Shown here: one piece after another, positions 1,759 through 54,820 of the stretch | Position numbering within the stretch: the first letter of the stretch is position 1 | Layout: each line of letters begins with the position of its first letter | Source of the DNA: Candidatus Magasanikiibacteriota bacterium | GTDB taxonomy: Bacteria > Patescibacteriota > Patescibacteriia > Magasanikbacterales > GWA2-37-8 | Reading direction: 5' to 3' | Length of the DNA stretch: 64,000 nt | Assembly (NCBI GenBank): GCA_016189025.1 | Contig: JACPGS010000014.1 | Location: 16,339-80,338, forward strand | Made by a program: the position numbers and the translations under genes | Notes under the pieces: generated by a model | Told to the model about the DNA's origin: nothing | Database searches by the model: none | Seen by the model: only the letters and a program-made list of their open reading frames with translations

Positions 1759-1938
1759 CTGTAGAAGAATGCTGACAATATCGTTTTTTACCTGGGCGCT
1801 ATCGCTATTGCTCTAGAATTTACTTGGTTGGTCGCGGCAGACACTCTTTGGGTGCTCTCCCGACTTAGTCGGGATGCGCGCCCAAAGACACTCGTCTGCC
1901 GCGCCCTGATGCTGACTGGATTTTTAATTCTTCTACAG
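1759..1938 (+). repeat. Interspersed repeat family A, copy 1 (about 180 bp, bounded by the 12-bp terminal inverted repeats ctgtagaagaat / attcttctacag, with a long internal hairpin).
   Basis: Near-identical copies lie at 26342-26520, 46143-46324 and 54650-54820. The core ...ggtcgctatcgctattgct...gcggcagacactctttgggtgctc-cccgacttagtcggg-atgcgcgcccaaagacactcgtctgccgcgccctgatgcta... is conserved and forms an imperfect long stem-loop. Confidence 0.8.
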
Positions 1939-1961
1939 TATCTGGCTATGAACTACTTAAA

Positions 1962-3122
1962 TCATACCACACCCCGCAAAGCCAGTCCAATCGCCACTGC
2001 CAGCCGCGGCCCTAAATCATCCAGAATCGGCTTTAACCCTTCCTGGTAAATTACCCGGCCCCAAGGGTCGCCCAGGTAGCATTTAAGGCGGAACTGCTCG
2101 GCCAGATATTCGGATAAGCCAGGCAGTTCGGCCGCGCCGCCGGTTAAAATAATCTTTTCCGGGGCGCGCCCGGCGGCGCCGCTCTCCCGCCGATACAGCA
2201 CCATCCCGTATTCAATTTCTTTCACCAAAGGCTGCAATACCGGCGCTAACAATTCAATAAATTTACTGCGATTCAGGCCGGCCGGTAGATTGGCGCCTCC
2301 CACAAATAAATCGCGCCGCAGCTGCTCTACTGCTTCTCCCTTGATGCCGAGAACGCTCTCCAGCCGGGCGGCAATCTGCCGGCCGCCCAATTCTACGCTT
2401 TGGTGGGTTACCGGCACCCCGCCCTCCACCATAAAGAAGTTGGTCCGCTCGGCGCCTAAATCCAGAAGCAACACCACTGCTTCGTCGCGCCCCACCAGCG
2501 AGCGCACCAGGGCAACGGCCTCGGTTTCGAGCGCCGCGAGTTTCAGCCCTGCCGCGGCAAACACCCGCGTATAAAAAGTTACCAGCTCCCGGGGCACGGC
2601 GTTCAACAGCACCTGCTCGGTTTTATCGGCATTCTCGGCTTTCCCCGGCGGCAGCACCTGGTAATCCAAAGTGGCCTCGGCCGCCGGGTAAGGCAAAAGT
2701 TTTTCCGCCTCGGCTTCAATTTGGGCGCGCCGGTTTTTGGGGTCACCCAGGGGAATGGTGAGCAAAGCGTGGAACACGGCAGTTACCGGCAATGATGCTA
2801 CGGCGGTTTTGGTAAGGACTTGCGCCTGCCGGCAAACCTCGCGCAGCTCCCGGCCATAGCGTTCTTCGGCTTGGGCCAGGGCGGCCGTTGCCGTGGGCAA
2901 GACTGCCGCGGCGCCGGGCGCTGCAGCGGCGGCCGGTGATTCTCCTTCGGCTTTAGCTCCCCCTGGTCGGGCTAACCGCGCCAGGGCGTGAATATCGGTC
3001 GGCGCGGCCGTATATCCGTAAGTATGGAGCACCGGACGGTTTTTAACCTTTTTTAATTCTACCACCTTTACGCCAAAGGCGCCAAAATCTACCCCCAAAA
3101 ATGATGGCGGTTTGCCGAACAT
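1962..3122 (-). CDS. pilM: Type IV pilus assembly protein PilM (actin-like ATPase fold).
   Basis: The N-terminus ...FLGVDFGAFGVKVVELKK... and C-terminus ...KIILTGGAAELPGLSEYLAEQF... are typical of PilM. The likely start is the ATG at 3122 (MFGKPP...); the ORF track extends to 3215. Confidence 0.75.
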   Translation of the reverse strand: MFGKPPSFLGVDFGAFGVKVVELKKVKNRPVLHTYGYTAAPTDIHALARLARPGGAKAEGESPAAAAAPGAAAVLPTATAALAQAEERYGRELREVCRQAQVLTKTAVASLPVTAVFHALLTIPLGDPKNRRAQIEAEAEKLLPYPAAEATLDYQVLPPGKAENADKTEQVLLNAVPRELVTFYTRVFAAAGLKLAALETEAVALVRSLVGRDEAVVLLLDLGAERTNFFMVEGGVPVTHQSVELGGRQIAARLESVLGIKGEAVEQLRRDLFVGGANLPAGLNRSKFIELLAPVLQPLVKEIEYGMVLYRRESGAAGRAPEKIILTGGAAELPGLSEYLAEQFRLKCYLGDPWGRVIYQEGLKPILDDLGPRLAVAIGLALRGVV

Positions 3123-3205
3123 ATACGGGTAGTATAGCAGAAAAGGAATGAGGCCGCCAGCGGCGCTGTTGATAAGTAAGGTAAGAGGATGGTACAATCC
3201 TGAAT

Positions 3206-4597
3206 ATGGCAACAATCAACTTCTACAACACCCTCACCCGCCAATTAGAAGAATTTAAACCCATCAAAAAGGGGCGCGCTGGCCTGTATACCTGCGGCCC
3301 CACGGTGTATAACTACGCCCACCTGGGGAACCTGCGCACTTATATTTTTGAGGATGTTTTGAAGCGGGTCTTGGTCTATAACGGCTACCGCGTCAAAAAC
3401 GTGATGAACATCACCGACGTCGGGCACTTAACGAGCGACGCTGATGAAGGCGAGGATAAAATGGAGAAGGGGGCGCGGCGGGAAGGCAAAACTGCCTGGG
3501 AAATTGCTGATTTTTACACCGCCGAGTTTTTAAAAGATTTAGCGGAATTGAATATCGGGCGGCCGGACCTGCTCCCCCGCGCTACCGAACATATTAAAGA
3601 ACAAATTACCCTGGTGAAAAAACTGGAGAAAAATGGCTTTACCTACCGTACCGTGGACGGCATTTATTTTGACACCAGTAAATTGCCGGGCTACGGCCGC
3701 CTGGCTAATCTTGCCAAGCAAAAACTGCGCGCCGGGGTGCGGGTGGACATCGGCGACAAACGCCACCCCACTGATTTTGCCCTCTGGAAATTTTCCCCGC
3801 CTTTAGAAAAACGGCAGATGGAGTGGCCGAGCCCCTGGGGCACGGGGTTCCCGGGCTGGCACCTGGAATGCTCGGCGATGAGCACCAAATACCTGGGGCA
3901 GCCGTTTGACCTCCACTGCGGCGGCATTGACCATGTGCCGGTGCACCATACCAACGAAATTGCCCAAAGCGAGGCGGCGGCGGGCAAACCGCTGGCTAAC
4001 TATTGGCTGCATGGCGAATTTTTAGTGCTACCCGGCGGCAAAATGGCCAAGTCAGCCGATAATTTTATTACTCTACGTACTCTTACCGAACGCGGCCTTC
4101 TCCCCCTGGCTTATCGCTACTTTGTCCTGCAGACCCACTACCGCAAACCGCTGACGTTTGACTGGCGGGCGCTTCGGGCCGCGCAAAACGGCCTGCAGCA
4201 TCTGTACCAGATAATTCGGGAGTGGACCGAAGAGCCGGCAATCGGCTGCGCCGAATTTGAGGCGCGGTTTCTTACGGCGGTGAATAATGATCTGAATCTG
4301 CCCGAGGCTTTGGCCATTACCTGGGAGCTGATTAAAAGCGGCTATCCGGCAAGCGCCAAAAAGAGCACCTTGTTCAAATTTGACGAGGTGCTGGGACTGG
4401 GACTCCGGGAAGTCAAAGCAGAAGCCGAGCCTCCCTTGCCGGCCGCGGTGCAGACACTGGTTAAGGAACGCGACGCGGCCCGCGCCGCCAAAGACTGGGG
4501 CAAAAGCGACGCCCTGCGCCAACGCCTGGAGCGTCTGGATTATGAAGTACGCGATACGAAAGAAGGTACGAAAGTGGTAGAAAAAAACCGAAGATAG
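3206..4597 (+). CDS. cysS: Cysteinyl-tRNA synthetase.
   Basis: Class I motifs HLGNLR (HIGH) and KMAKS (KMSKS) are present, with CysRS-type conservation throughout (...[13 protein letters not shown]...WHLECSAM...). Confidence 0.95.
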
Positions 4598-4621
4598 ATA
4601 CTCCTGCTTACGAAAACAAAA

Positions 4622-4650
4622 AAATCGCCGAGCAGGGCGATGTGTTTTAG
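4622..4650. terminator. Bidirectional intrinsic terminator between convergent cysS and pepN.
   Basis: aaaaaaatcgcc-gagcag-ggcgat-gtgtttt is a hairpin with an A-run 5' and a T-run 3'. A second GC-rich hairpin plus T-run lies at about 4700-4745. Confidence 0.5.
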
Positions 4651-7684: not shown

Positions 7685-7800
7685 TTAAAACCCCGACTAA
7701 GTCGGAGCTAATCCTCTGCCCGCCAGTGGCTGACGAATCGCTGACGAATAAAGGACAATGGCGGACGATGGAGTGAAATCCCCTCCCTTCGTTTCTCCAT
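7685..7800. repeat. Short intergenic repeat: a ccccgactaagtcgg hairpin plus a conserved aataaaggacaatggcggacgatggagtgaaatcccctcc module with its own hairpin (ggacgatggag...ctccatcgtcc).
   Basis: The same two modules recur at 11984-12108; a diverged version (ggacgacgaggacgatg...catcgtcc) lies at 9610-9665. All sit upstream of consecutive minus-strand genes (corA-like, helicase, sigma). The cccgact(t/a)agtcggg hairpin also forms the centre of repeat family A. Confidence 0.5.
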
Positions 7801-7844
7801 CGTCCGTACTGCTTAACGTATCCCTGGCCGTCAGCTTCCGGCCG

Positions 7845-11826: not shown

Positions 11827-11983
11827 GGCGCATCTCCTGGTTGAGTGAGAAGGACACGATGTGAAAAGAACTAACCCCGCTTTTTCCGTGTCCTAAAAAG
11901 GCGGGGTCCGTTATTCAACGGAATGTTTCCATCGTGCCATAATCCTCCCCGCGTGTCAAAAAATGTCAAAATTAATAATTCAA

Positions 11984-12108
11984 AAACCCCGACTAAGTCG
12001 GGGCATATCAATTTTTACTTGCCCGCTTCCCGACTTAGTCGGGATTCGCGGGCTTCTAATAAAGGACAATGGCGGACGATGAAGTGAATTCCCCTCCTGT
12101 CAAGACGG
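11984..12108. repeat. Second copy of the hairpin + aataaaggacaatggcggacgatg module (see 7685-7800), with two cccgact(a/t)agtcggg hairpins.
   Basis: aaaaccccgactaagtcgggg...cccgacttagtcggga...aataaaggacaatggcggacgatgaagtgaattcccctcc lies in the divergent intergenic region upstream of the sigma-factor gene. Confidence 0.5.
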
Positions 12109-12903: not shown

Positions 12904-15483
12904 TTGCCCATGCCTCCCGACCTCGCCCCTTTCTCTCCCCCCGAAGCCATCTCTTTTGTCGCCGCTCTTTTGCAGAACCCGGCGGTGTTTTTGCTGGTCG
13001 TAGTCTGGGGCATTATTTTCGCCCTGGTCGCTTTGCTCTACCTGCTGCGGGCGTTGTTACACGCCAAAAGCCGCGCTGCCAAAGCCTTCCACAAAACCGT
13101 CCTGCTCGTCCGCGTGCCCAAGGAAAAGAAAACCGAAACCGAACAGCAGCGCTCGGCCGAGGCCGCCCTGAACCAAATCCGCGAAGAAATTGCCGTAGCC
13201 GACACCTTTTTCTCGGCCGTGGCGGGACTCAAGCGCGAGCGCGGGTTGATGAAGTGGCTGAAGGGCCGCAACGACCACTTGGCGTTTGAACTGGTGGCCA
13301 AAGCAGGCAAAATTTCTTTCTACGTGGCCGTACCGGATAAACTGCGCGGCTTTGTGGAACAGCAAATCCATGCCCAGTACCCGCACGCGGAAATTACCGA
13401 GGCGCTGGACTATAACCTGTTTACCCCCTACAGCTATATTGCAGGCAGCTACCTGTGGTGCAAATTCAAATCCGCTTTCCCTTTTAAAACCTACAAAAAA
13501 ATGGACAGCGACCCCCTGCTTGCCCTCTTGAATCCCCTCTCCAAAATCGGCGCCGACGAAGGGGCGCTGATCCAGTATGTCGTGCGCCCGGCCAGCCCCC
13601 GCTGGCGCTCCCAGGGGGTGCAGATGATCCGCGACATCAAGGAAGGCCAGAAATTTGAATATGTCGCGCGCCGGGGAGCGCTAATGCGTGAGCTGTTTAA
13701 GACTAAAAAAGCGCTCTTCCCCCAAAAACGCGACGCCGCCAAGCAGACGGCCGCGGCCGAACCCTACCGCCTGACCCAGATGGAAGAAGAAATGGTAAAA
13801 GGCATGGAAGAAAAACTCTCGCACGGCGGGCTGGAAATTACCGTTCGGGTGGTAAGCTCGGCGGGAAGCCGCGCCCGCGCCCAGTTAAACCTGGAAAACA
13901 TTATCAATGCTTTCAGCCAGTACAACATTTACCGCTACGGCAACTCGTTCGGCGCCGCCTTGCCGCGCCGGGTGGGAACGCTCATCAGCAATTCCATCTA
14001 CCGCGGGTTTGACGAGCGCCATTACCAGGTGGTCAACACCGAGGAGCTGGCGAGCCTCTGGCATCTGCCGCTGCCCGCTACGGAGACTCCCCGGATTAAC
14101 TGGCTCACGGCCCGGCGCGCGCCCCCGCCGATCAATATGGGAACGGAAGGAATTATCTTGGGGCGGGCAGTATACCGGGGAGAAGAAACTGTGGTGCGTA
14201 TGAAGCGCGCCGACCGGCGCAAACACCTTTATGTGGTCGGCAAATCCGGCAGCGGCAAATCGGTCTTTATTCAAAATCTGGCGGTGCAGGACATCCAGAA
14301 CGGCGAAGGCGTGTGCGTGGTTGACCCCCACGGCGACTTTGTGGAATATGTCCTGCAGCACATCCCTAAAGAGCGCGTGGACGATGTGGTATATTTTAAT
14401 CCGGCGGACACGGAGCGGCCGATTGGCCTGAACATGCTGGAAGCGGCTACCGAAGAACAGAAGGATTTTGTCACTCAGGAAATGGTTTCCATTTTCTACA
14501 AACTGGTAACCGACCCTAGCATGATCGGCCCGATGTTTGAGCACAACATGCGCAATGTGATGCTGACTTTAATGGCCGACCCGGAAACTCCCGGCACCAT
14601 TGTGGAAATTCCGCGGATGTTTACCGACGACGCCTTTGTGGCCAAATGGAAAAAGAAGCTGCGCGACCCGGTGGTGCTCGCTTTCTGGGAAAAAGAAATG
14701 GCCAAAACCAGCGATTTTCACAAGTCGGAAATGCTCGGCTACCTGATTTCCAAGGTGGGGCGCTTTGTGGAAAACGTAATGATGCGCAATATTATTGGAC
14801 AATCGCATTCTGGTTTTAACCTGCGCGAGATTATGGACCAGCGCAAAATTCTTTTGGTCAACCTGGCCAAAGGGCTGGTAGGAGAAATCAACTCCAACCT
14901 GCTGGGGCTGATAATCGTTTCCAAACTGCAGATGGCCGCCCTGGAGCGCGCGGCCTTGCCCGAAGAAGAACGCCACGACTTTTATCTCTACATTGACGAA
15001 TTCCAGAACTTTATTACCGAATCCATTGCCACCATTTTGTCCGAAGCCCGCAAATACCGGCTGAACCTAATTATGGCCCACCAATATATGAAGCAGCTGG
15101 AAGATAACAAGGGCAAAACCACGGTGCGCGACGCGGTGCTCGGGAACGCCGGCACCATTGTGGCTTTCCGCATCGGGCCGGAAGACGCCGAGGTGCTGCA
15201 GAAAGAGTTTGCCCCGGTGTTCGGCAGCTACGACCTCCTTAATATTGAGCAATATACTGCTTATATTAAATTGCTAATTGACAATACGGCCAGCAAGCCT
15301 TTTAATATGATGACCTACCCGCCGCTTGCCGGCAATAAAGAGCTGGCCGCCGCCATTAAAGAGCTCTGCCGCCTAAAATACGGCCGGCCGCGCGAAATTG
15401 TGGAGGCGGAAATTATGGAACGCGCCCAGCTGGGAGTGGCGGCTAAATCTTCGGAAGTAGATTTAAGCGAAGCCAGTTTATGA
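12904..15483 (+). CDS. Type IV secretion coupling-protein-like ATPase (VirD4/TraG/TraD-type AAA-like P-loop protein with an N-terminal TM anchor).
   Basis: Features are an N-terminal TM helix, Walker A VVGKSGSGKS followed by VVDPHGDF (the DPxGD motif of T4CPs), Walker B LYIDEFQNF and an ...EARKYRLNLIMAHQ... arginine-finger region. The stop overlaps the dnaX start (ATGA). Confidence 0.55.
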   Translation: MPMPPDLAPFSPPEAISFVAALLQNPAVFLLVVVWGIIFALVALLYLLRALLHAKSRAAKAFHKTVLLVRVPKEKKTETEQQRSAEAALNQIREEIAVADTFFSAVAGLKRERGLMKWLKGRNDHLAFELVAKAGKISFYVAVPDKLRGFVEQQIHAQYPHAEITEALDYNLFTPYSYIAGSYLWCKFKSAFPFKTYKKMDSDPLLALLNPLSKIGADEGALIQYVVRPASPRWRSQGVQMIRDIKEGQKFEYVARRGALMRELFKTKKALFPQKRDAAKQTAAAEPYRLTQMEEEMVKGMEEKLSHGGLEITVRVVSSAGSRARAQLNLENIINAFSQYNIYRYGNSFGAALPRRVGTLISNSIYRGFDERHYQVVNTEELASLWHLPLPATETPRINWLTARRAPPPINMGTEGIILGRAVYRGEETVVRMKRADRRKHLYVVGKSGSGKSVFIQNLAVQDIQNGEGVCVVDPHGDFVEYVLQHIPKERVDDVVYFNPADTERPIGLNMLEAATEEQKDFVTQEMVSIFYKLVTDPSMIGPMFEHNMRNVMLTLMADPETPGTIVEIPRMFTDDAFVAKWKKKLRDPVVLAFWEKEMAKTSDFHKSEMLGYLISKVGRFVENVMMRNIIGQSHSGFNLREIMDQRKILLVNLAKGLVGEINSNLLGLIIVSKLQMAALERAALPEEERHDFYLYIDEFQNFITESIATILSEARKYRLNLIMAHQYMKQLEDNKGKTTVRDAVLGNAGTIVAFRIGPEDAEVLQKEFAPVFGSYDLLNIEQYTAYIKLLIDNTASKPFNMMTYPPLAGNKELAAAIKELCRLKYGRPREIVEAEIMERAQLGVAAKSSEVDLSEASL

Positions 15484-17114: not shown

Positions 17115-17115
17115 T

Positions 17116-17146
17116 ACTGTCATTCCGAACTAATGTGAGGAATCTC
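17116..17146. mobile_element. Truncated copy (one terminus only) of the CTGTCATTCC palindromic mini-element; it overlaps and supplies the start codon of the 17135 gene.
   Basis: ctgtcattccgaactaatgtgaggaatctct matches the reverse complement of the left end of the leuS copy (ctgtcattccgaacgaacgtgaggaatctctg). The ATG of MRNLFLK lies inside it. Confidence 0.45.
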
Positions 17147-17983
17147 TTTCTTAAATTATCTAAATTTCCCCCGCTCTTGATTCTTGCACTCTCGCTCCTC
17201 CCCGCCTCTGCCTTCGCCGCCACTCCCGCGCATTATCTTAATGTGCCGTTCACCCCTCAAGTGCCGGACGGCAACTGGAGTCCGCCCTGGAACAATGCTT
17301 GCGAGGAATCCAGCGTGATTATGGTGGAGCGCTATTATCTGGGAGACCAGCGGCAACGGATTCCCCCCGCCGAGGCCAAGGCGCTGATGCGGCCGCTGTT
17401 TCGCTGGGAAGACCGGGTATTCGGCGGTAATGCCGATACCAACGCCGAACGCACGGCGCGGCTGATTAATGAATACACCTCTTTTGAGGCTACCATCGTA
17501 CGTAACCCCTCTCCCGAGGCGATTGAAGCCGAACTTAATGCAGACCGGCCGGTTATTACCCTTAATTACGGCATTGCTCTTAACAATCCCCGCCACCGCT
17601 TCCGGCGCGGCGGCTCCGGCTACCACATGATGGTGCTAACCGGCTACGATCACGCCCGCAATCAATTCGCCGTGAACGACCCAGAGCTCTCCGAAGGCCT
17701 TGACTATCCTTATTCTTATGATAAGATTCTCTCTACTTTGGGCGATTTTGACCACCGCACTAAAAAAGTAAACCGCGAACTCCCTACCGTCATTTTTACC
17801 AAACCCAAAGAGTTTATCCGCGCCGCCGGCCGCCGGCGGGTATACCTGGTGCGCGAAGGACGTAAATTCCTAATCACCAGACCGAAAGTATTCACTGCCC
17901 ACCGCTGGAGCTGGCGCCTGGTGCGCGCGGTGAGCGCTGAAGAGTTGGCCGCCTTGCCTGAGGGCGAACCGATTGAGGAATAA
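17135..17983 (+). CDS. Secreted protein with a signal peptide; possibly a papain-like/C39-like cysteine peptidase fold.
   Basis: The signal peptide is MRNLFLKLSKFPPLLILALSLLPASAFAATP. Candidate catalytic residues are Cys in NNACEESSVIMVERYY, His in GYHMMVLTGYD and Asn/Asp in AVNDPE. The fold assignment is tentative. Confidence 0.4.
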   Translation: MRNLFLKLSKFPPLLILALSLLPASAFAATPAHYLNVPFTPQVPDGNWSPPWNNACEESSVIMVERYYLGDQRQRIPPAEAKALMRPLFRWEDRVFGGNADTNAERTARLINEYTSFEATIVRNPSPEAIEAELNADRPVITLNYGIALNNPRHRFRRGGSGYHMMVLTGYDHARNQFAVNDPELSEGLDYPYSYDKILSTLGDFDHRTKKVNRELPTVIFTKPKEFIRAAGRRRVYLVREGRKFLITRPKVFTAHRWSWRLVRAVSAEELAALPEGEPIEE

Positions 17984-20835: not shown

Positions 20836-20913
20836 ATTAGTTAGGTATATTTTTTGCCTACTTAATTATACCTGATTCAAGTAATATCAGTCAACCGCGC
20901 TGATCAAAATAAC

Positions 20914-24244: not shown

Positions 24245-24248
24245 ACAA

Positions 24249-35105: not shown

Positions 35106-35139
35106 TGACTCTGCTGATTTCTGAATCTGCTGTTCACCC

Positions 35140-38100: not shown

Positions 38101-41100
38101 GTCCCTGGCAGGGGCGATACACACGCCATTGGTACAGACGCCCGACCCGTCGGCTCCGCAGGGAGCGCCGTCTGGATTGCAGCTGTAAACTGCCGGGCCA
38201 GCGGTGGTCGGCACCCGTCTCACCAGCCGCCAGTCGGCCGGGGCGCTGGGGGGCGCGATATTCATCTGCCAGAGCTCTTCGGGAGGCGGCAGCCCCAAAA
38301 GCGAATATCCAGAATATTCCTGATTCCGCCAGCCTACCCCGCGTTTAACATAATCGGCGACAGTTAAGGCCGGGGTAGCGCCTTTGTTCTCCACCCAGTT
38401 GCCGCAATTAGTGAGGTCGCCCGGCTCGGTCGCCGGCGCCGCGGTATTGCAACGCCCTACTTCGTCGCATACTTCCCGCCAACGGGAAGTGGTCTGATCC
38501 CACACCCGGTGCGAGGAGCGGCACTGCAGCCACTCGCCGCATTCGCGGTCAGGCGCTACTTTAATGATGATGTTGGCATCGTTCTTGTTGCTGGCTGGCT
38601 CGGGCGGAACTAGCCGGCCGTCGTTGCGGTCGGATTTGCGGTAACTCGCCGCCGTATTCCACAGCTTGGCGGGGTTCGCTGTTTCGTCAAACAGGGCGCA
38701 GCCGTTTTTCAGACTCACTTCGCCGCTGCAGTCGTTTTTGTTGACCTTGTCGTTATTAAGGAAGTACCAGGGCCGGTTATTGTCGTTGCGGTCCACAAAT
38801 TCGCTACAGCCGGCTTCGGCCGCCGGACATTCGCCGACAAACCCGGCGTAAGTATTAACGTCGCCGGCCGACCACAAGCCATAGGAGCCGTCGGCCAAAG
38901 TATAATTGGGGTAACACGCGCGATCTTGGTTACACTTGTTGCCGGCGCCGCAGGCGGCATCGCTCGCGCAAATCTTAGTGGCATCGTTATCGCAGACCTT
39001 AACCCCGCTCCAGTACCAGCCGGCGCGGATGCCCTTATCCGGTACCGCCGGGCGATAAGCGCAAATCCGGTTGCCCTGCACGGCCGGATCTTTGGCATAA
39101 GTAGTGCCGCCCCTGGCGTCCAAGAGCGCGCTGCACCCCACCGCTTCGCTTTGGCAGAGCGCTTCGCGGTAGAGGGCAGGGTCGTTCTTAATCAGCGTGT
39201 CCTCAAACTGCGTGCCCGCTGCCGCCGGCACTAGAGCGCCAGCCGCGGTACAGCCGCGATCCGGCTCGCGGCAGATGGTTTCCTGATTATTTACCAGATA
39301 CCACGGCGTGGTGCTGGGCGTATCCGCGGGCAGATATACCGAGGAGGGGGTTAGTTGCGGACGCACCGCGGCGCCATTAATTTCTCCTTGGGCAGTTAAA
39401 ATGCCGGGCTCTACATCGCGCACGTCTACATAACAGCCCGGCTCCCCGGCCGGCACGGCGCAGGTGACCGGCGTGCGGCCGTCCGGGGCCGCCAGATCGC
39501 GGCCGTTAATGGTCAGCTTAAGAGTGCCGGGGCCGTTGCCTGGCAACCAGACGCGATACACCTGCGGGCCCTGGTCGGCTTCCGTCACCCGCCCGCCGGT
39601 CAGGGTGTTATAAGTATCCAAAACCGCAGTGCAGCCGATGGCCGCCTCGCGGCAGAGGAAGCTAAAATTAGTGAGGTTTTCGCTGCGGCCGTCCGCCGCC
39701 GTGTAGGCGCGACAGCCAAGAGCCTCGCCGGGCAGATTATCTTCCGGGTGAGAATCGCAGGCCGCCGGGATAGTGAGGGAATTTTTTAAGCGATAAAGAT
39801 AATCGCTCACTTCGGTGAGCTGGACATTGTCAATAAAGAACTGGCCGGGCGAAGCGGGATTAAAGAAAAGATACGCGCTGGTGGTGGCGCCGGTAAAAAT
39901 AACCGGGCCGTAGCGATAATACTGCCAGGCGTCGCCTAACCCGCGGCTCTCTAGAGTGGTATCAAAATTGCCGTCCGCATCCACCAGACGCACCGAGAGA
40001 TTCCCCCCGCTGCCTTTGGCCCAAAAGGTGAGGGTATAGCTTTCGCCCAGGCGCAGCGCTTCGCTATCAGTCAGACGGCGAATCAGCACCCCGCCGGCGC
40101 CGGAGACGGTAAGCGACTGTTCGTTGGCATGGGTGGATTCGGACGACAGCGCATAATTGGTGGCGCCGGCCGGCGCGCTCCAGGCCGGCAGATCCGCGGT
40201 GGTAGTAACGCCTTCAAAGGTATCGGTAAAAATCTGGCGCACGCGGTTGCCGCGCGGCCCCTTGTACTCGCGGCAGGATTCGGCCGCGGCGCTGCAGCTG
40301 GCGCTCGCGCCGGCGTTAGTCAAGACGCCGCCGGGCAGCCCGCGGTAATAGCAAAAGCCGTCGCGATATTCGCCGCCGCTGTAACACAATTCGCACCGGC
40401 CGCTCGCTAGCTCCCATTTGCCGCTTTCCGCCGCACACTCGGCAGCGCCAAACTCGCACCGCCCGTTATTCCACCGGCCGTGGCGGAGCGTGCAGGCCGC
40501 TTGGGTAGCCGCCCCGCTGACCAGCGCGGTGTACAGCTCCGGCGCGTCCAGCCGGTAATCGGTGCAGGAATTGGATACGGGAATAGTTTGGGCGAGCAGG
40601 CGATAATAAACCCGGCCTTGGTCATCGTTAAACTGCCGGCAATCTGCGTCCGCCTGTCCTGCTTGGTAGAGAGCCGCCGTGCATTTTTGCTCAAACCCAG
40701 CTAGTTCCTCTAGGGTGCGATAGAAATACTTGGGACCACCGCTGCCATCCGTTGCCAGAGTGTAAACGCGCAACTGGAATCCGGCTTGGGCGGTACCTTC
40801 AAACACCGTAAAATTCTTTTCTTTAGTTTTGGGGGTAGCGGGGTCCGGCAGCTGGCAAGGACGCAGCCTGGTAAAGTATTCCACCTGTTCAGCGCGACCC
40901 TCACTGACATTAGTAAAGGCGCGGCAGCCTTTTTCTTCGGCGCGGCACTCTTTGGCCAGATCCGGAATTAAATACGCCAGCGGCTCCCCGGCCGAATAAT
41001 CGCTTTCGGTTTCGCGATAAGCGTCATACCCCACGCACTGCGCCTCACAGCGGTCGCCGCTCACCACCTTGCCCGGAATCCGCTCGCCGGTTTCTTTGGC

Positions 41101-43305
41101 GGTGTACACCGCACAGCCCACTTCGTCGGGAATACAGGCCGGCGCATACTGCCCGCAGGCAGCCGGGGCGCCCGCGGCCAGGCGGTTCAAATCCGCCGGA
41201 TTTTCCGGCCACTGAATACCCGGGGCGGTGCGGTCAGCATCATAGCACCCCAGGTAATCGGGCGCTTTGCGCAAATTCAGCAAATCTCCGGCCGGGTCAG
41301 CGGCGGCCACAAACGCGGTGCAGCCCGCGGAGCGAGCGCCGCAGGTGGAAGCGGCCGGCAATTTAGCGTTAAAGTACACCGCATCCGAAGCAAAACCCAA
41401 AGCAGCGTCCGGCGTACTAGGCAGCTGCCACTTGCCGCTCGCATCCTGGCGCAGGCTGTAAGCGCGGCAGCCGACTGCCGCTTCGCTGCAGGAGCGGGTA
41501 TCCAGGGTGCGGGAGAGATAAGAAACTTCTTTCCCGCCTGACTGATAAGTCTGGCAGGTGCGATTTTCCGCCCGGCAGGTATCGGCATTAAATTTCCAGG
41601 CATTCTTCTCCCGCGCGCAATAGGCAAAAGTAGCGCAGGTTTTGTTATCCGGGGCATAAGCCACGCAGGTAGAGAGGTCGGCGCATTCGGTGAGGCGGGT
41701 CGGCACATCGCGCCCCAGATGCAGGGCCCCCGGCCCCAGGGCATTGCAGCGCGCCGGCGGCGCCTTGATTACCCAATCCGGATCAATCAGATGGCAATAG
41801 GGGAAGCGCGCCGGGTCGGGGCGCACGCCGGTAATCTCCCCGGCCGGATTGCGGATAAAGTCGCAGTCATTAAAGCCTTTCACTACGTCGCCCAAAATCC
41901 AGGGGCGATCCGGGTTGCTGTTCGCGGCGGCAATCTCAAAGCCCAGGGGCAGTATCCGCGCCTGGCGCAATACTTTAATGTTGCTGTAACAATAAGCATT
42001 CTGGCAGAATTGTTTTAAGTCGGCGTTCTCGGTCACCCGGCTCCCGGGAATCAGTTTGCGGTCAGCGTGCAGCCAGCCGCGCGCCAAGGCCGAAGCAACG
42101 GTAACGGTTTCACCGCCCGCCGCGTTCTGTAGCGCCAGCAAAAGGTCGTTGTCGGCGCGGCAGTTATAGGTGCCGCTCCCCTCGCAGTTGCCGAGCTCGG
42201 CAATTAAATCATAGCTTTCTTTGGCGCCAAGCTCCACTGCCAGAAATGAGCTGAATAATTCCTGGGCCGCGCGCCGGCCTCCCACGGCCCCGCCGGCTTC
42301 AAATTGCTGGGCAGCAGCCCCGGCGCCGAGACAATTTTGGCTGCCGTCGCGGCAGCCGCTGCCAAAGGGCAGAATACCCTTTTCCTGGTAATTTTTTACC
42401 ATCGTAGAAACCAGGGTATTCAGGAAAATTCCCAACACATTGGGAATGACCCTGATTTCGCCGGAAGTAAGGAGCGCCCGCACCTGCTCTTCGTCGCTTT
42501 CGCCTTGTTTGCTGGGGATGATGTTTTCAAATCCTTTTTGAATTAGCGCCGCCGGATTGGTAATCTGGTTGGAGATCAACGTGGTCTTAGCTAAAAAGCC
42601 TTTGCCTTCCTCGCGCTGCTTATCGGCCCCGGCCACTTTATTGCGAATCAGCTGATCAATTTTTTGGGTAGTTTTTAAATGAATGCCAAAATCGGTCTGG
42701 GATAATTCCAGATTGGCGCTGAATCTTTCGGCCAGCGATTCTTCGCTGTATTTGCTCCGCCAGGCATCGCCGCTAAACCACTCGCTGGTAAACTGCGAAA
42801 AACTGCACTTGCCTTTGAGCGGCGATCCCGGCTCGGCGCCGGGGACATCTTCAAAACCGGTGCGCAAACCAATGCGCAGCGCCAGATTAACCTTAACATC
42901 AGGAATCTGGCAGATATTTTCCACGCCAAACGCACTCCCTAGCTGTTCAATGCCGGCCCCCAGGGCGTCATCACCCACCTGCTTCAGATAATCGCCAAAT
43001 CCTTTAGTGAAAGCGAGCGGGCTTTGGCCCTTGCCCCCCGCGGCCAGCCACACGGCCGAGTCATAAGCGAATTTGCGCAGGGCATAAGCCACCACCCGGC
43101 TGGTGGCGGTGAGCACCGCGGCCTTCAAGCCGGCATAAATCTGATTGATGATCTTATTGGTGGTATCGGGAATGCTGCCGGTGATAAAAGCCGGCAAGCC
43201 TTGCGCCTGCGCCGGCGCCGGAATAAGCAGGGTGCCGGCGAGCGAAGTGGCAGCCAGCAATACCGCCAAAAGCCCGAGACTGAATTTTTGCCAGGGTTTA
43301 GGCAT
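35140..43305 (-). CDS. Giant (2721 aa) secreted cysteine-rich surface protein with a lectin/CBM-like beta-sandwich segment.
   Basis: The signal peptide MPKPWQKFSLGLLAVLLAATSLAGTLLIPAPAQAQG and many Cys clusters throughout are present. The segment ...LTFWAKGSGGNLSVRLVDADGNFD...FFNPASPGQFFIDNVQLTEV resembles carbohydrate-binding beta-sandwich modules. The gene is about 65% GC. Confidence 0.65.
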   Translation of the reverse strand: MPKPWQKFSLGLLAVLLAATSLAGTLLIPAPAQAQGLPAFITGSIPDTTNKIINQIYAGLKAAVLTATSRVVAYALRKFAYDSAVWLAAGGKGQSPLAFTKGFGDYLKQVGDDALGAGIEQLGSAFGVENICQIPDVKVNLALRIGLRTGFEDVPGAEPGSPLKGKCSFSQFTSEWFSGDAWRSKYSEESLAERFSANLELSQTDFGIHLKTTQKIDQLIRNKVAGADKQREEGKGFLAKTTLISNQITNPAALIQKGFENIIPSKQGESDEEQVRALLTSGEIRVIPNVLGIFLNTLVSTMVKNYQEKGILPFGSGCRDGSQNCLGAGAAAQQFEAGGAVGGRRAAQELFSSFLAVELGAKESYDLIAELGNCEGSGTYNCRADNDLLLALQNAAGGETVTVASALARGWLHADRKLIPGSRVTENADLKQFCQNAYCYSNIKVLRQARILPLGFEIAAANSNPDRPWILGDVVKGFNDCDFIRNPAGEITGVRPDPARFPYCHLIDPDWVIKAPPARCNALGPGALHLGRDVPTRLTECADLSTCVAYAPDNKTCATFAYCAREKNAWKFNADTCRAENRTCQTYQSGGKEVSYLSRTLDTRSCSEAAVGCRAYSLRQDASGKWQLPSTPDAALGFASDAVYFNAKLPAASTCGARSAGCTAFVAAADPAGDLLNLRKAPDYLGCYDADRTAPGIQWPENPADLNRLAAGAPAACGQYAPACIPDEVGCAVYTAKETGERIPGKVVSGDRCEAQCVGYDAYRETESDYSAGEPLAYLIPDLAKECRAEEKGCRAFTNVSEGRAEQVEYFTRLRPCQLPDPATPKTKEKNFTVFEGTAQAGFQLRVYTLATDGSGGPKYFYRTLEELAGFEQKCTAALYQAGQADADCRQFNDDQGRVYYRLLAQTIPVSNSCTDYRLDAPELYTALVSGAATQAACTLRHGRWNNGRCEFGAAECAAESGKWELASGRCELCYSGGEYRDGFCYYRGLPGGVLTNAGASASCSAAAESCREYKGPRGNRVRQIFTDTFEGVTTTADLPAWSAPAGATNYALSSESTHANEQSLTVSGAGGVLIRRLTDSEALRLGESYTLTFWAKGSGGNLSVRLVDADGNFDTTLESRGLGDAWQYYRYGPVIFTGATTSAYLFFNPASPGQFFIDNVQLTEVSDYLYRLKNSLTIPAACDSHPEDNLPGEALGCRAYTAADGRSENLTNFSFLCREAAIGCTAVLDTYNTLTGGRVTEADQGPQVYRVWLPGNGPGTLKLTINGRDLAAPDGRTPVTCAVPAGEPGCYVDVRDVEPGILTAQGEINGAAVRPQLTPSSVYLPADTPSTTPWYLVNNQETICREPDRGCTAAGALVPAAAGTQFEDTLIKNDPALYREALCQSEAVGCSALLDARGGTTYAKDPAVQGNRICAYRPAVPDKGIRAGWYWSGVKVCDNDATKICASDAACGAGNKCNQDRACYPNYTLADGSYGLWSAGDVNTYAGFVGECPAAEAGCSEFVDRNDNNRPWYFLNNDKVNKNDCSGEVSLKNGCALFDETANPAKLWNTAASYRKSDRNDGRLVPPEPASNKNDANIIIKVAPDRECGEWLQCRSSHRVWDQTTSRWREVCDEVGRCNTAAPATEPGDLTNCGNWVENKGATPALTVADYVKRGVGWRNQEYSGYSLLGLPPPEELWQMNIAPPSAPADWRLVRRVPTTAGPAVYSCNPDGAPCGADGSGVCTNGVCIAPARDNTAAAERLTCRAYPEEDAPFPNTLSLVDAPLFNGVKRCQESGPSAAGPTALACECDYTRVQYGDLTTKFWNYRAPNSANPLPRAGATLPGPKGVPPALCEGGTQAGKVCATNADCAPRPGATPDGTCQRLTREDKRIGWRGYCLEYDQSRPLNNDPKTHPCLTWWPVDTLQGALDINNQHAEAGYQNPERGGTFYCLNSSGGADAQGGHSFVTRPHLSISTNQFAVNPLPPDSSTEEAKIIQTDIEKITFQVVSSGPEDPAPGTIFEIWPNDPATQQASYKVKPKNKEDGDWQLGYAVAGRFLGQSHQLVLMYGSQLVQGNTADTYVKEDGQVCFPLAGGRCGDLSGNIFTRIIGDPWQSSSCPGANRGNGNWHAIKVRFDLETRAFLGYDFSFCDDSPDSGGIDYKVTFHLREWCRAIAEAKVDYAAPETAPWTNRLWNKLRQFPIQALRFTSSAGKTNLNYNVNTPFSPFGSLDANSPEGLASPVILTPFSLPSEAGQVGRPCSGLVERTNLPATCRCPSGGLEECRYWILDPQASIGAPYSCADAAGSRICTRSEEQQGKLVTVKTAAGEYLAPEGRNNLGQIFAAVKRIFRFDLTPASTASGYTGYQVTDERIATAGSLFADFVYDYTATGDLHDGNTVGVAPQRPQLWAPFRCDAADDCFEGPTSRDVFTVNGVTSTAKISGAANRTAVLRFFGAADSNQMPLRGVAVDWGDGRVIRYAGQYRNQRGKIEDICRQGARVCQGDPAVNGRTCSADADCQGQLQHYQCSIRETEGRCRDDRSIACTASDNSDCPFFDNDSNRPRTPCSVPSTKYCDINGQKGDVCTTDQACPPLPNQPTPTCSSGLRCTVGGQSCTQLNGSCGPARWCVEAGQAPTFDRQEGATCDNAFFQFEHVYQCAADAGNLNWLPNDSRCRAAGLPGGCCIYRPRVQLTDNWGWCNGNCGRTDSAGRNLGCYREECQDNSPTSGAWTTFQGNVIVAPSQ

Positions 43306-44975: not shown

Positions 44976-46133
44976 CTACCGGTCTCCCGCCAACTCTGTC
45001 TTTAACCCCGCCGCCGTATAATGGTTGCGCGAATTCCATAACAGCCACCCGGCGTCGCTTACCTTTTCTACGGCATCAATCTGGGCGCGGATTTTTTTGG
45101 CGTCGTATACGGCGCCGAGGTTAAACGCCTGCAGCCAGGGGCGCACCCGGGCGCGCTTATCAGCAAACTTCGGCAATCCCAGCTTAAGGCCATAGGCGAT
45201 GACTTTCGCCGGCGCCGCGGCCGGATTCTTTAACCCCAAGTGCCCGCGCGGGTAATGCGAGGGGTACATCATCGGCGAAATATAATCCACGTGGGGGGCG
45301 GCATCCGCAATCCGCTGGCCGATGTTGAGGTCATTCTGGCCGGCGGCTTCCATGGTCAAACCAAACAAATCCAGCGATATCCAGGCGGGCTCTTGCCCCA
45401 ACTCTTCCCCCAGATACTGATAAAATTTAGCCATCACTTGCGCCCGCGACTGATTGCCGTTGGTATATTTTACTAAGCGGATGTTGCCATCCGAGGGAAA
45501 ACGGATATAATCAAAATTTATCTCATCAAACCCCAAGCTAATCGCCTCTTTAGCAATCGCTAAATTATATTCCCACACTTCGCGCCGCGTCGGGTCTACC
45601 CAGGTCAAACCTTTATAATCGCGCCACCGCCCCCCGCGCTTGCTTTTAATCGCCCACTCCGGCCGGCGCCCGGCTAAAACCGGATCCTGGAACACTACCT
45701 GGCGCGCCATTACATACACGCCCGCCTGGTGTAATTGGGTAATGATAGACGACAAATCGGAGAGAATCGGTTTTTTTGTTTTAAGCTGGTTCACCAGGGG
45801 CACGGCGCTGTCGTACAACACATAGCCGGTATAGTCTTTAATGTCAATCACCACGGCATTGAGCTCGGTTCGCTGAATCAGGCGGAGGATTGCCCGGAGT
45901 TTATCCGGACTGGCAGCCGAATAGGCAGTTAAGTATATGCCTTTCACGGTTTGAGCCGGCGGCTTCTCGCGCGCCGCCAGAGGAAGAGCCGACGGCACCG
46001 TAACCGTCGCCGGCGTACTGGTAGAAACGATTTCCGTCTCCGCCTGCGCCCACTGGTCGGATATACTCCCGGCTGCGCCGAGACTAATAACTAAGAAACA
46101 GACCAAATTAAAAACTGAATGCTGACGAAACAT
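44976..46133 (-). CDS. Putative secreted glycoside-hydrolase-like protein (GHL10/DUF187-type TIM-barrel).
   Basis: A signal peptide and the block ...VKGIYLTAYSAASPDKLRAILRLIQRTELNAVVIDIKDYTGYVLY...GVYVMARQVVFQD are typical of the family-10-like 'glycosyl hydrolase-like' lipoproteins. The likely ATG is at 46133 (MFRQHS...); the ORF track start at 46163 is encoded by repeat A3. Confidence 0.5.
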   Translation of the reverse strand: MFRQHSVFNLVCFLVISLGAAGSISDQWAQAETEIVSTSTPATVTVPSALPLAAREKPPAQTVKGIYLTAYSAASPDKLRAILRLIQRTELNAVVIDIKDYTGYVLYDSAVPLVNQLKTKKPILSDLSSIITQLHQAGVYVMARQVVFQDPVLAGRRPEWAIKSKRGGRWRDYKGLTWVDPTRREVWEYNLAIAKEAISLGFDEINFDYIRFPSDGNIRLVKYTNGNQSRAQVMAKFYQYLGEELGQEPAWISLDLFGLTMEAAGQNDLNIGQRIADAAPHVDYISPMMYPSHYPRGHLGLKNPAAAPAKVIAYGLKLGLPKFADKRARVRPWLQAFNLGAVYDAKKIRAQIDAVEKVSDAGWLLWNSRNHYTAAGLKTELAGDR

Positions 46134-46142
46134 ATTTTGAAA

Positions 46143-46324
46143 CTGTAGAAGAATGCCGAACATAATCGTTATCCGCCTGGTCGCTATCGCTATTGCTAAA
46201 ATTAGCCTGGTTAGTCGCGGCAGACACTCTTTGGGTGCTCTCCCGACTTGAGATCGGGATGCGCGCCCAAAGACACTCGTCTGCCGCGCCCTGATGCTAA
46301 CTGGTTTTTTTAATTCTTCTCCAG
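46143..46324 (+). repeat. Interspersed repeat family A, copy 3.
   Basis: TIRs are ctgtagaagaat / attcttctccag (11/12); the core is identical to the other copies. Confidence 0.8.
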
Positions 46325-46341
46325 TCTCATTTTTAGCCTGG

Positions 46342-52450: not shown

Positions 52451-53368
52451 CTAATTGTCTTGGCGAAAATATACAATCTTGGCGCGCCATTGCTGCCGGT
52501 AACGCTCCCGGCTGTCGTTCAGGTGGAATTTAAGCGCGCCCGGGGCAATCACCACGCTGTGGTCAGGGGAGTTGGCGCGCTGCTTAATTTCCGGCAACAG
52601 CCAATGCCATTGAATAAATCGGGTCAGGCGTTCGGCCCAATCATCCCTTTTACCGCCCGACGGCCTTAATTCTGATTGAATAGGCGGCGTTGGCCGCTCA
52701 ATATTAGGCAAATAACTTCGGGTCCACCGGTTAACGGCAATCAGCTGATCGTAATAATGGTGCGGATCATAAAGCGGCAACATCTGATGCAGCCAGTAAG
52801 CAAAATGAATATCGTCATCCGCCACCCGGAGGGGCGCTAAATCAAGCTGATTAGCCGCCACAAAAAAACACAAACAAATCCGGTCGCGGCGCTCTCTGCC
52901 ATACACCCGCCAGCCTAATAATCGCAATAAGGCGTTAGCAAAAAACCGCGCCAGCCAAAGGCGGCCCGGCGCGGTGATAATAAAGAAGTCAAGGTCGCTC
53001 TCTGGCGCCGCATTCTCGGCCGCCACCGAGCTGGAAAGGAATACGGCCCGGATAAAGGGAAGCCGGCCGACAAGGCGAGCCGCCTGGCTAGCGCGTTGGC
53101 GCTTTTGCTCGCTTACTAGCCCCCTCGCGCGGCGCTCTTCTATCAACAAACCCCGGCCCGCTAAATAATGGAATCCGAATTTTTCTGCTACCGTGCCCCC
53201 GGTCTTCAGCCGGTTTAGCGCCGCCGCAAATGCAGCGGCTGCCCCCGACGGCGCCTGCCATAAATAGCGCCACAGCTCCTCTTTAGTGAGGGGAAAATCA
53301 AGTAAATCAAAATAAGCAAGCGTTTCGCTGATAGATTGTTCCAGCGTGCGCACACATTTAGAGCTCAT
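52451..53368 (-). CDS. Hypothetical protein, possibly with a nucleotidyltransferase fold.
   Basis: ...SDLDFFIITAPGRLWLARF... resembles the hG[GS]...[DE]h[DE]h nucleotidyltransferase motif; the assignment is weak. Confidence 0.3.
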   Translation of the reverse strand: MSSKCVRTLEQSISETLAYFDLLDFPLTKEELWRYLWQAPSGAAAAFAAALNRLKTGGTVAEKFGFHYLAGRGLLIEERRARGLVSEQKRQRASQAARLVGRLPFIRAVFLSSSVAAENAAPESDLDFFIITAPGRLWLARFFANALLRLLGWRVYGRERRDRICLCFFVAANQLDLAPLRVADDDIHFAYWLHQMLPLYDPHHYYDQLIAVNRWTRSYLPNIERPTPPIQSELRPSGGKRDDWAERLTRFIQWHWLLPEIKQRANSPDHSVVIAPGALKFHLNDSRERYRQQWRAKIVYFRQDN

Positions 53369-53519
53369 TTCAAAACCTGCTTTCGCAAGCGAGCCGTTTG
53401 ATTTTCGTAGCGAGGCGAAGCGGCGGAGGCGGAAACGTATTGGAAATACGTTGAAGCCGAGCCGCTAGCCACAGCCGAAAATCAAACGGGGTAGCCGAAA
53501 TGAGGTTTTGAAATGAGCT
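53362..53519. repeat. Nested palindromic element exactly filling the intergenic gap (outer 17-bp inverted repeat agctcatttcaaaacct / aggttttgaaatgagct; inner cgtttgattttcg / cgaaaatcaaacg; central aacgtatt..aatacgtt).
   Basis: The left arm overlaps the ATG of the 52451..53368 gene and the right arm ends 2 nt before the stop of the 53521..53826 gene. Confidence 0.55.
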
Positions 53520-53520
53520 C

Positions 53521-53826
53521 TTACTGCTTGGTCGTTGGCATCACCCCGCTAAGGGCGGTCTGCCGGCCTGGCAAGGCGGAACGCTCCTCCGCCGCCGCCC
53601 GCTCCCCTCCCACGGCATCCTCTACGATCAAGGCTTCCGGCGTAAAACGTTTTACTTGCGAGGGCGCCACGCGATAATTAATCCGCGCGCTCCAGCGCGA
53701 CCCGATGCTGTAAGCACCAATGCTGCTAGTGCCAAAATCAACTTCCACATCTTTCACTACTCCTAAACGGATTCCCGATTCGGTCAATGCCGGCAAACCC
53801 AGCAGTTGTCTAGCGGAAGAACGCAT
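53521..53826 (-). CDS. Small PRC-barrel-like hypothetical protein.
   Basis: ...GIRLGVVKDVEVDFGTSSIGAYSI...LIVEDAV... is weakly PRC-barrel-like; it is adjacent to yidC. Confidence 0.3.
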   Translation of the reverse strand: MRSSARQLLGLPALTESGIRLGVVKDVEVDFGTSSIGAYSIGSRWSARINYRVAPSQVKRFTPEALIVEDAVGGERAAAEERSALPGRQTALSGVMPTTKQ

Positions 53827-53838
53827 ATTGCTACTAGC

Positions 53839-54618
53839 TTACTTCTTCACTATTTCTCCCTCCACCACTCCGCCGGCAGCAATAGCCGTGGCGGGTGCCA
53901 TCGGAACCTGCCGCTGCAAAATCATCTGCTGCAGCGCCATCAGCACCGTGGACAGGAACCAATACCAGGTCAGCCCGGCCTGCAGGCTAAAGCCGATTAC
54001 CACCGTCAGGACGGGAAAGACGTAGAGCATCTGCTTGTTCATCATCGCGGCCATCCCTTCGTCGCGCCCGCCCTTGCCGGCCTCCGGCGGCGGCGCTTTA
54101 CGGATGAGACTTTTGGCCTGCCAAAACTGGGCAATACCGGCGAGCACCGCCAATACCGCATTGGGTTTGCCCATATCAATCCACCCTAAAGAAACCGAAT
54201 TAATCGTGCCGGGGTTGGCCACCAACGGATAAAGGTTTTGCGCGATGTTGGCCGAGCCCAGGCCGTCGCGCAACACCAGATATAAGGCAATCAGAATGGG
54301 AAACTGAATCAGCATCGGCAGACAGGAGGTGACCGGATTCACCCGATGCGTTTTATACATCTCCATAATCGCCGCGGTCTGCTGCTGCTTGTCGTCGGCA
54401 TACTTCTTTTTAATCTCTTCCAGTTTGGGCTGCAATTCCTGCAGGGAACGCTGGGCTTTAATGGATGAGCTGGTTAAGGGGTAGAGCACCAGCCGGACGA
54501 TGACGGTAATAATCAGAATGACAATGCCAACATCGTGCCCGGGCACGATGTTGTAGAGCGCTACAAACCCATTAAAAATCGGCTGATACAACCCGGCGTA
54601 AAACAACGCTTTGAACAT
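53839..54618 (-). CDS. yidC: Membrane protein insertase YidC (short, Gram-positive/Oxa1-like form).
   Basis: ...GIVILIITVIVRLVLYPLT...KLQPKLEEIKKKY...MLIQFPILIALY... are conserved YidC TM1/C1/TM2 signatures. Confidence 0.85.
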   Translation of the reverse strand: MFKALFYAGLYQPIFNGFVALYNIVPGHDVGIVILIITVIVRLVLYPLTSSSIKAQRSLQELQPKLEEIKKKYADDKQQQTAAIMEMYKTHRVNPVTSCLPMLIQFPILIALYLVLRDGLGSANIAQNLYPLVANPGTINSVSLGWIDMGKPNAVLAVLAGIAQFWQAKSLIRKAPPPEAGKGGRDEGMAAMMNKQMLYVFPVLTVVIGFSLQAGLTWYWFLSTVLMALQQMILQRQVPMAPATAIAAGGVVEGEIVKK

Positions 54619-54649
54619 AATAATCCAAATTAAGATTAGACTATACGCA

Positions 54650-54820
54650 GAATGATGGTGACATTGTTATCCGCCAGGGCGCTATCGCTATTGCTAAAAC
54701 TCACTTGGTTGGTCGCGGCAGACACTCTTTGGGTGCTCCCCCGATTTAATCGGGGTGCGCGCCCAAAGACACTCGTCTGCCGCTCCCTAATGCTAACTGG
54801 TTTTTTCGATTATTCTACAG
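54650..54820 (+). repeat. Interspersed repeat family A, copy 4 (left terminus diverged or truncated).
   Basis: The core ...ttatccgccagggcgctatcgctattgctaaaactcacttggttggtcgcggcagacactctttgggtgctcccccgatttaatcggggtgcgcgcccaaagacactcgtctgccgc... and right TIR attattctacag are present. Confidence 0.75.

Follow-up and report, generated by a model that had tools for sequence, protein, structure and literature searches.

Does a short repeat that recurs between genes, always in the same orientation, act on those genes, or is it mobile DNA that the genes tolerate? The question arises from a 64-kb stretch of DNA (hereafter the window; all coordinates are those of the whole stretch) from an uncultured groundwater bacterium of Candidatus Magasanikbacteria in the candidate phyla radiation (CPR), known from a metagenome-assembled genome (MAG). 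NusA encoded in the window is 100% identical to MBI2444047.1, and the next-best NusA among 5.8 billion proteins is 77% identical. The repeat, which we call family A, is about 180 bp long. A preliminary description of the window had taken its constant orientation as a sign of function (an outward promoter, a structured 5'-untranslated region (5'-UTR) or a transcribed small RNA (sRNA)) that a passive MITE (miniature inverted-repeat transposable element) would not show. The evidence assembled here inclines us, a little beyond even chance, to a different account, in which family A is a lineage-specific, non-autonomous, non-coding palindromic interspersed repeat of the MITE or repetitive extragenic palindromic (REP) kind that was inserted where co-directional genes adjoin tightly.

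Four full copies and one truncated copy of family A were found in the window, a density of about one copy per 16 kb. The full copies are all on the plus strand and all intergenic. Copy 1 (1758-1939, 182 bp) lies between the stop codon of pilM (1962) and the start of a response-regulator gene (1706). Copy 2 (26341-26524, 184 bp) lies 8-12 nt past the stop codon of an unknown gene (26533-27534) and 6 nt ahead of the ATG (26334) of the gene that heads a PrgI/TraC-like/VirB4-like cluster. Copy 3 (46142-46325, 184 bp) separates the stop codon of yrdC/sua5 (46342) from the start of a DUF4015 glycosyl-hydrolase-like gene (46133), and copy 4 (54645-54821, 177 bp) separates the stop codon of nusA (54827) from the start of yidC (54618). 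At every full copy both neighbors are minus-strand genes, the first named being upstream and the second downstream. The invariant 21-mer GGCAGACACTCTTTGGGTGCT occurs four times in the window, always on the plus strand, against an expectation of zero, and a profile built from the copies recovered the four full copies with nhmmer at E values of 1e-63 to 1e-68. Reading of the sites, the 21-mer count and the profile search thus bear out the four places given in the preliminary description, and its statement that the repeat is always intergenic holds for all four full copies. The identity of more than 90% claimed for the core was exceeded in the central hairpin, which is nearly 100% identical across the four copies, whereas pairwise identity over whole copies (177-184 bp) is 86-91%. 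The truncated copy (57081-57129, 49 bp, minus strand; nhmmer E=6.7e-6) has the opposite orientation. It keeps the right arm only, that is, the hairpin base, the T-run and the right terminal inverted repeat (TIR), and takes up the entire spacer from the stop codon of a methyltransferase gene to the GTG start of an MBL-fold gene.

Family A has an asymmetric layout, which reads from left to right as a TIR, a left arm of about 55 nt that contains the invariant unpaired block CGCTATCGCTATTG (46182-46195 on the plus strand in copy 3), an extended hairpin of about 98 nt (46207-46304, plus strand, in copy 3), a T-run in a short right arm, and the second TIR. The TIR pair ACTGTAGAAGAAT/ATTCTTCTACAGT is 13 bp long and perfect in copy 1; most other ends carry 1-2 mismatches, and the left end of copy 4 is so degenerate that a search allowing two mismatches missed it. 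With that reservation for copy 4, the TIRs noted at the outset are real. In copy 3 they are ACTGTAGAAGAAT at 46142-46154 and ATTCTTCTCCAGT at 46313-46325 (both plus strand), and the end-to-end similarity extends about 4-5 nt beyond them (TGAAA.../...TCTCA). In the form used for comparison with the ends of insertion sequences (IS), the end of family A is TGAAACTGTAGAAGAAT. The left flanks are alike among copies (TGAAA, TGCAA, TTAGA), and GTAG is present inside each TIR, about 70 nt from the hairpin.

The hairpin core (46216-46288 in copy 3) is nearly invariant and consists of stems of 10, 11 and 7 bp with internal loops and an apical stem CCCGA...TCGGG. The T-run (46305-46311, plus strand, in copy 3) directly follows the extended hairpin and contains 5-7 T in all four copies. 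The long imperfect hairpin that had been proposed from the sequence was confirmed by folding, with a z-score of about -7.7 on both strands and pairing of 98% of cells vs about 40% in slid controls. The folding-energy gap between strands was only -0.9 to +5.6 kcal/mol, the plus strand being slightly more stable in three of four copies, so that folding energy cannot decide which strand would be the functional one. No reading frame is kept among the copies, since a 2-nt loop indel shifts the frame and the stop codons vary; a coding function was rejected on this ground. A protein-database search with the longest open reading frame (ORF) of the element, made to find spurious ORF calls in other copies, returned no candidates.

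For comparison we used 1.3 Mb of sequence from Magasanikbacteria and other Patescibacteria, in 80 loci surrounding nusA. Relatives keep the gene order comEC-methyltransferase-MBL-nusA-yidC. Across 49 relatives the median spacer between nusA and yidC is 54 nt; this spacer is mostly 3-55 nt and often 3-23 nt, and is 208 nt here. Similarly, the spacer between yrdC and the DUF4015 gene is 8-32 nt in seven relatives and 208 nt in the window. Over both junctions, the spacers of relatives mostly measure 3-30 nt. When the element is subtracted, about 25-30 nt remain at both 208-nt junctions. Junctions that are tight in relatives are thus long here by about the length of the element, indicating that family A was inserted. 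Where relatives have longer nusA-yidC spacers, these hold other, unrelated palindromic elements with ends of the type TGTCATYCCGAG...GGAATGACA; palindromic elements with similar ends fill this spacer in relatives L010, L025, L028 and L030. Together with the palindromic elements of the window, they suggest that short spacers have been invaded repeatedly in this clade.

Family A itself was confined to this genome in our searches. In the 80 related loci no copy, diverged homologue or structural homologue was detected, either by nhmmer or by a covariance model of the hairpin. An exact-pattern scan for an invariant 19-mer of the core gave no match in GTDB species genomes and only three chance matches, lacking the element itself, in JGI metagenomes. 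A scan of IMG/VR with both hairpin arms and a blastn search of plasmids and phages likewise gave no match, and an Rfam scan of the window found only a tRNA above the gathering threshold. With permissive thresholds, the best Rfam match of the element was mir-55 (16 bits vs a threshold of 53, E=1.1), so that the element matched no family at the gathering threshold. The repeat had been called novel, and these databases contain no relative of it. Family A is a previously undescribed family of a kind, the small palindromic repeat, that is well known in bacteria.

Further, family A is probably repeated beyond the window. Logan contigs were recovered from runs within SRR12113385-SRR12113433, and at all four sites every one of them ended inside the element, as expected of a multi-copy repeat, and the junctions between genes and element were reproduced by independent Logan assemblies of several runs. 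The high genome-wide density that had been anticipated is probably real, because short-read contigs of several samples break inside the element. The reproduced junctions, together with an expectation of zero chance matches, also refute chance similarity or an assembly artefact as the source of the family, and we regard such an origin as practically out of the question.

Conservation within the element is uneven. Variable columns number 2 of 67 in the core stems vs 38 of 112 in the arms and TIRs (Fisher p=2e-7), and the two variable core columns form a single compensatory T-A/C-G pair. The core is thus constrained in sequence as well as in pairing and is more conserved than the TIRs, and the near-invariance of these 67 nt implies selection on the hairpin as such, the most likely target of recognition by a trans-acting mobilizing enzyme or a host factor. 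Two compensatory pairs were found, and 36 of 500 shuffles of these four near-identical copies reached the observed covariation score, which was therefore not significant. Covariation, being almost absent beyond these two pairs, neither proves nor disproves an RNA structure. The view that family A is not a passive element gains from the core, whose conservation far exceeds that of the arms and TIRs, as it would not in a purely neutral relic; the argument from orientation, on which that view had been built, fares worse, as described below.

The one strand-specific feature of the element lies at the base of the hairpin. An outer helix of 9 bp extends the hairpin on the plus strand only, because five of its nine pairs are G.U, which become A.C mismatches on the other strand. 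The extended hairpin ends 0-2 nt before a tract of 5-7 U in all four copies, and folding of the nascent plus-strand RNA gave it as the minimum-energy fold (-54 to -57 kcal/mol) in all four. A stable hairpin followed by a U-tract, as in Rho-independent terminators, was therefore found on the plus strand, and the minus strand of family A contains no comparable hairpin and U-tract. The structure looks like a terminator that points antisense to the neighboring genes, with an atypically long stem and a weak, G.U-rich base. A consensus scan of the element called no terminator and no conserved sigma-70-type promoter; it missed the terminator-like feature, which emerged only when the nascent plus strand was folded. 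Ordinary hairpin-plus-T terminators are used in this genome and were also seen in relatives.

How much does the orientation itself tell? All four full copies have the same orientation (two-sided p=0.125), and with the reversed fragment at 57081-57129 the count becomes four of five (p=0.375), so that the constant orientation claimed in the preliminary description applies to full copies only. The minus strand carries about 80% of the genes of the window, and the GC skew is uniformly negative. Each full copy lies about 5-23 nt after the upstream stop codon and about 6-52 nt before the downstream start codon. The copies thus adjoin minus-strand start codons, as had been noted, and adjoin stop codons equally closely. 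The genes downstream of the copies are functionally unrelated. With four copies, a strong excess of minus-strand genes, a uniform skew and a reversed fragment, the step from orientation to function, and hence away from a passive MITE, does not follow. Nor did a promoter or 5'-UTR function find support, as the element has no conserved sigma-70 promoter, stop codons are as close as start codons and covariation was not significant. The orientation bias could be due to chance or to selection against polarity, and there is no evidence of a promoter or 5'-UTR function. Because the only strand-specific feature is the antisense hairpin with its U-tract, a filter for tolerated orientation fits the data at least as well as a 5'-UTR does.

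The position of the repeat affects gene calls. The longest ORFs of the response regulator (1308-1778, MSAFFYSF...) and of the DUF4015 gene (44976-46163, MFGILLQFQN...) run into the repeat, and the true starts are likely the ATGs at 1706 and 46133. Three N-termini derived from the repeat had been counted earlier; only these two are visible. Automatic annotation of this genome may contain N-terminal extensions of this origin. Many genes in the window are without a Shine-Dalgarno sequence.

From these observations we propose the following history. Family A would have spread inside one Candidatus Magasanikbacteria genome by entering very short spacers of co-directional genes, the neighboring minus-strand genes probably having been co-transcribed before the insertion. 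Polarity would be avoided only if the terminator-like face points against the co-transcribed genes, and selection, or chance with only four copies, may have left full copies in a single orientation. The sole reversed copy persists with its hairpin deleted, which would fit such a polarity filter, although this is a single case. With the element in the tolerated orientation, sense transcripts would read through it and bear, between cistrons, a long and nearly perfect hairpin. Judging from ERIC and Correia elements (PMC3049150), this intercistronic duplex could be a substrate of a double-strand-specific RNase or a 3' stabilizer of the upstream RNA. Precedents for terminator-like and operon-embedded repeats exist (PMC3049150).

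As expected of a MITE, family A is shorter than 500 bp, has no coding capacity, is bounded by TIRs and occurs in multiple dispersed copies at junctions that are short and element-free in relatives. Several observations weigh against an inserted MITE- or REP-like repeat. An empty-site allele was not seen in any sample, the Logan contigs being short and all stopping inside the element. Inspection of the four copies revealed no evident target-site duplication; the flanks show 3-nt matches at copies 2 (TAA) and 3 (TTT), in AT-rich sequence, and none at copies 1 and 4. Neither a transposase nor a Y1 or RAYT domain was found within the 64-kb window, which thus encodes no cognate transposase such as had been envisaged for the TIRs. 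Conservation is lower in the TIRs than in the core, the opposite of what a classical DDE-type MITE shows. The helix beside the U-tract is weak and G.U-rich, and termination is a prediction from folding. The orientation argument rests on only four or five copies, and orientation relative to transcription is confounded with orientation relative to replication because the GC skew is uniform.

Some of these points would be accounted for if family A were an HUH-type single-strand DNA element, mobilized by a Y1 transposase or a RAYT, as a REPIN-like or IS200/IS605-derived palindrome. The hairpin would then be the recognition structure, no target duplication would be made, and orientation would be set by the direction of replication rather than of transcription. 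The much stronger conservation of the hairpin core than of the TIRs, the lack of target duplication, the similar left flanks and the GTAG inside each end agree with such an element, as do the common orientation of all full copies, which lie on one replichore of uniform GC skew, and the occurrence of the 15-18-nt palindromic unit on its own at 7691, 11988 and 12029. We nevertheless consider it unlikely: clear 13-bp TIRs are foreign to IS200/IS605 elements, the GTAG is not beside the hairpin as it is in REPs, the window has no Y1 transposase, and the reversed fragment lies on the same replichore. A multi-copy sRNA gene on the plus strand, giving a hairpin RNA of about 100 nt antisense to the neighboring genes, would explain why the extended hairpin with its U-tract is found on that strand only, why the plus-strand fold is slightly more stable in three of four copies, and why the core and the block preceding it are the most conserved parts. 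In such a gene a weak promoter of the extended -10 type would reside in the conserved left-arm block (TGCTAAAAT in copy 3), the transcript would run from the hairpin base to the U-tract, and the TIRs would reflect how the gene was duplicated; -10-like hexamers (TAGAAT, TAAAAT, TAAAAC) do lie about 5-8 nt ahead of the hairpin base. However, no conserved promoter emerged from the consensus scan of the element, two copies have a C at the critical last position of the -10 hexamer, and the TG spacing is lost in copy 1. Moreover, Rfam gave no match and the relatives no homologue, the copies sit precisely at insertion points in tight junctions, and a decayed reversed copy is typical of mobile DNA. 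An sRNA gene thus seems to us improbable, to about the same degree as an HUH-type element.

The action in cis on the downstream minus-strand gene that was first suspected, through an outward promoter or a structured 5'-UTR, appears less probable again. In its promoter form, the TIR end TACAGT or TATAGT would be the -10 box of a leaderless mRNA, 6-8 nt ahead of its start codon. Outward TACAGT does precede the start codon, by 6 nt at copy 2, 6 nt at the fragment and 8 nt at copy 3; the Shine-Dalgarno sequence is lacking from many genes here, and all full copies share their polarity toward the downstream genes. Yet both TIRs read identically outward, so that a TIR promoter leaves the orientation bias unexplained; the consensus scan revealed no -35 or TG motif; at copy 1 the start codon is 52 nt away and at copy 4 it is 21 nt away; upstream stop codons are equally near, as expected from insertion into spacers of 10-30 nt; and the downstream genes have no function in common. 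In a broader form that cuts across these alternatives, the hairpin of about 100 nt with its U-tract and the invariant block might be a functional unit needed by the host or by a novel enzyme (a multi-copy hairpin sRNA or an insulator against antisense transcription, peculiar to one CPR lineage) or the recognition hairpin of an undescribed single-strand mobilization system that sets orientation; we hold this as a minor possibility, with a low probability. An inserted MITE- or REP-like repeat therefore remains the account toward which we incline.

Part of the family A core also occurs outside the family. A stand-alone hairpin, GCCCGCTTCCCGACTTAGTCGGGATTCGCGGGC (12021-12053, plus strand; nhmmer E=0.011, covariance model E=0.66), contains the 18-nt apex TCCCGACTTAGTCGGGAT of the core, and closely related hairpins lie at 11988-12002 and 7691-7707, each followed by a T-run on the minus strand. 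The occurrence of the apex alone and of the related hairpins suggests that a REP-like unit serves in several contexts, family A being mosaic-like. The hairpins at 7691 and 11988 belong to a two-copy intergenic repeat (7687-7810 and 11983-12097) with a 40-mer, AATAAAGGACAATGGCGGACGATGRAGTGAAWTCCCCTCC, that is 95% identical between copies. In both copies of this repeat the hairpin CCCGACTAAGTCGGG runs into TTTT on the minus strand, a terminator-like arrangement. About 10 nt separate the end of the hairpin at 7691-7707 from the GTG start of corA, and the copy at 11983-12097 lies upstream of a sigma-70 gene of 717 aa. Other palindromic families, with ends TGTCATTCC...GGAATGACA, were located at 17113-17150, 22233-22267 and 61828-61865, and at 58922-58952, 59164-59210 and 63792-63838. 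Several of these palindromes lie in frame inside ORFs, namely comEC (57842-59596) and an ORF at 60906-63989, where they are translated, for example, as ...IPAFAGMTG... and ...VIPTEVGIQ.... The palindrome CCCGACTTAGTCGGG is also recurrent in the window.

Other features of the window were recorded. A 35-nt direct repeat (20707-20741 and 20831-20865; 74% identical, 124 nt apart) covers the 5' end of a Fic-domain gene (19900-20835) and the sequence just upstream. A 31-nt inverted repeat (53355-53385 and 53496-53526; 87% complementary, 110 nt apart) brackets the spacer between a gene at 52451-53368 and a PRC-barrel gene at 53521-53826. Genes resembling those of type IV secretion or conjugation are found at 12904-15483 and 22388-26334 (a coupling-protein-like ATPase, a VirB4/TraG-type P-loop ATPase, and TraC-like and PrgI proteins). 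A Fic gene and two NYN-domain genes lie near this cluster, and two giant minus-strand ORFs of 1788 and 2721 aa lie upstream of it (29739-43305), with three smaller genes between. The secretion genes may mark an integrated region related to conjugation or competence. Beside copy 1, a type IV pilin-like gene (832-1305) has a weak match, below threshold, to the ComP DNA-uptake-sequence receptor (25.7 bits vs a cut-off of 27.3). Integron attC sites were considered for family A and rejected: the motif order is reversed (GTTGGT on the 5' side and GCTAAC on the 3' side), the consensus RYYYAAC...GTTRRRY does not fit, and the copies lie 8-25 kb apart, outside any cassette array.

Genomes of CPR/Patescibacteria are very small and streamlined. 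The presence of family A in formerly tight operon junctions shows that selfish or co-opted DNA is still tolerated in them, and the other palindromic families in the same spacers of relatives point to the same tolerance. There are practical effects as well, since short-read assemblies break at family A and gene calls acquire falsely extended N-termini. Further, a conserved core combined with a strand-specific terminator-like face makes family A a testable case of transcription polarity filtering the orientation of a mobile repeat.

We found no description of MITE- or REP-like repeats in CPR/Patescibacteria in the searchable literature, and the comparison is therefore with repeats of other bacteria. 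The Correia elements of Neisseria (CREE/NEMIS) are likewise TIR-bounded, non-coding intergenic repeats, about 100-160 bp in length, with long hairpins; they are often co-transcribed with their neighbors, can be cleaved by RNase III, and have ends that can create promoters (summarized in PMC3049150). They differ from family A in their 26-bp TIRs and TA target duplication, as opposed to 13-bp TIRs and no duplication seen. There is no sequence similarity, family A is most conserved in its center and not in its TIRs, and its host belongs to the CPR. ERIC/IRU elements are also imperfect palindromes with a highly conserved central inverted repeat at transcribed intergenic sites, and their effects on mRNA depend on orientation (PMC3049150). 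ERIC is 127 bp long, occurs in Enterobacteria, has no sequence similarity to family A and is without a U-tract or terminator-like face. In SPRITE, also an interspersed repeat, the fold is a long stem with a U-rich tract behind it, and where the copies occur depends on what transcription tolerates (PMC3049150). SPRITE copies lie mostly at 3' ends between convergent genes and face the gene, whereas family A copies lie between co-directional genes and face antisense; unlike SPRITE, family A has pairing TIRs, as BOX and RUP do. With REP/BIME and the REPIN-RAYT system, family A shares a short palindromic unit (here TCCCGACTTAGTCGGGA) that occurs both alone and within larger mosaics, a hairpin that is more conserved than its surroundings, and GTAG near the ends. 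It differs from REPs and REPINs in its length of about 180 bp with true TIRs, in a GTAG that does not adjoin the hairpin, and in having no RAYT in the window, whereas a REP proper is a 20-40-nt palindrome directly behind a conserved GTAG, and its RAYT gene has REPs on its flanks. On our best reading, family A is MITE-like with a REP-like hairpin unit at its center, comparable to a small mosaic element.

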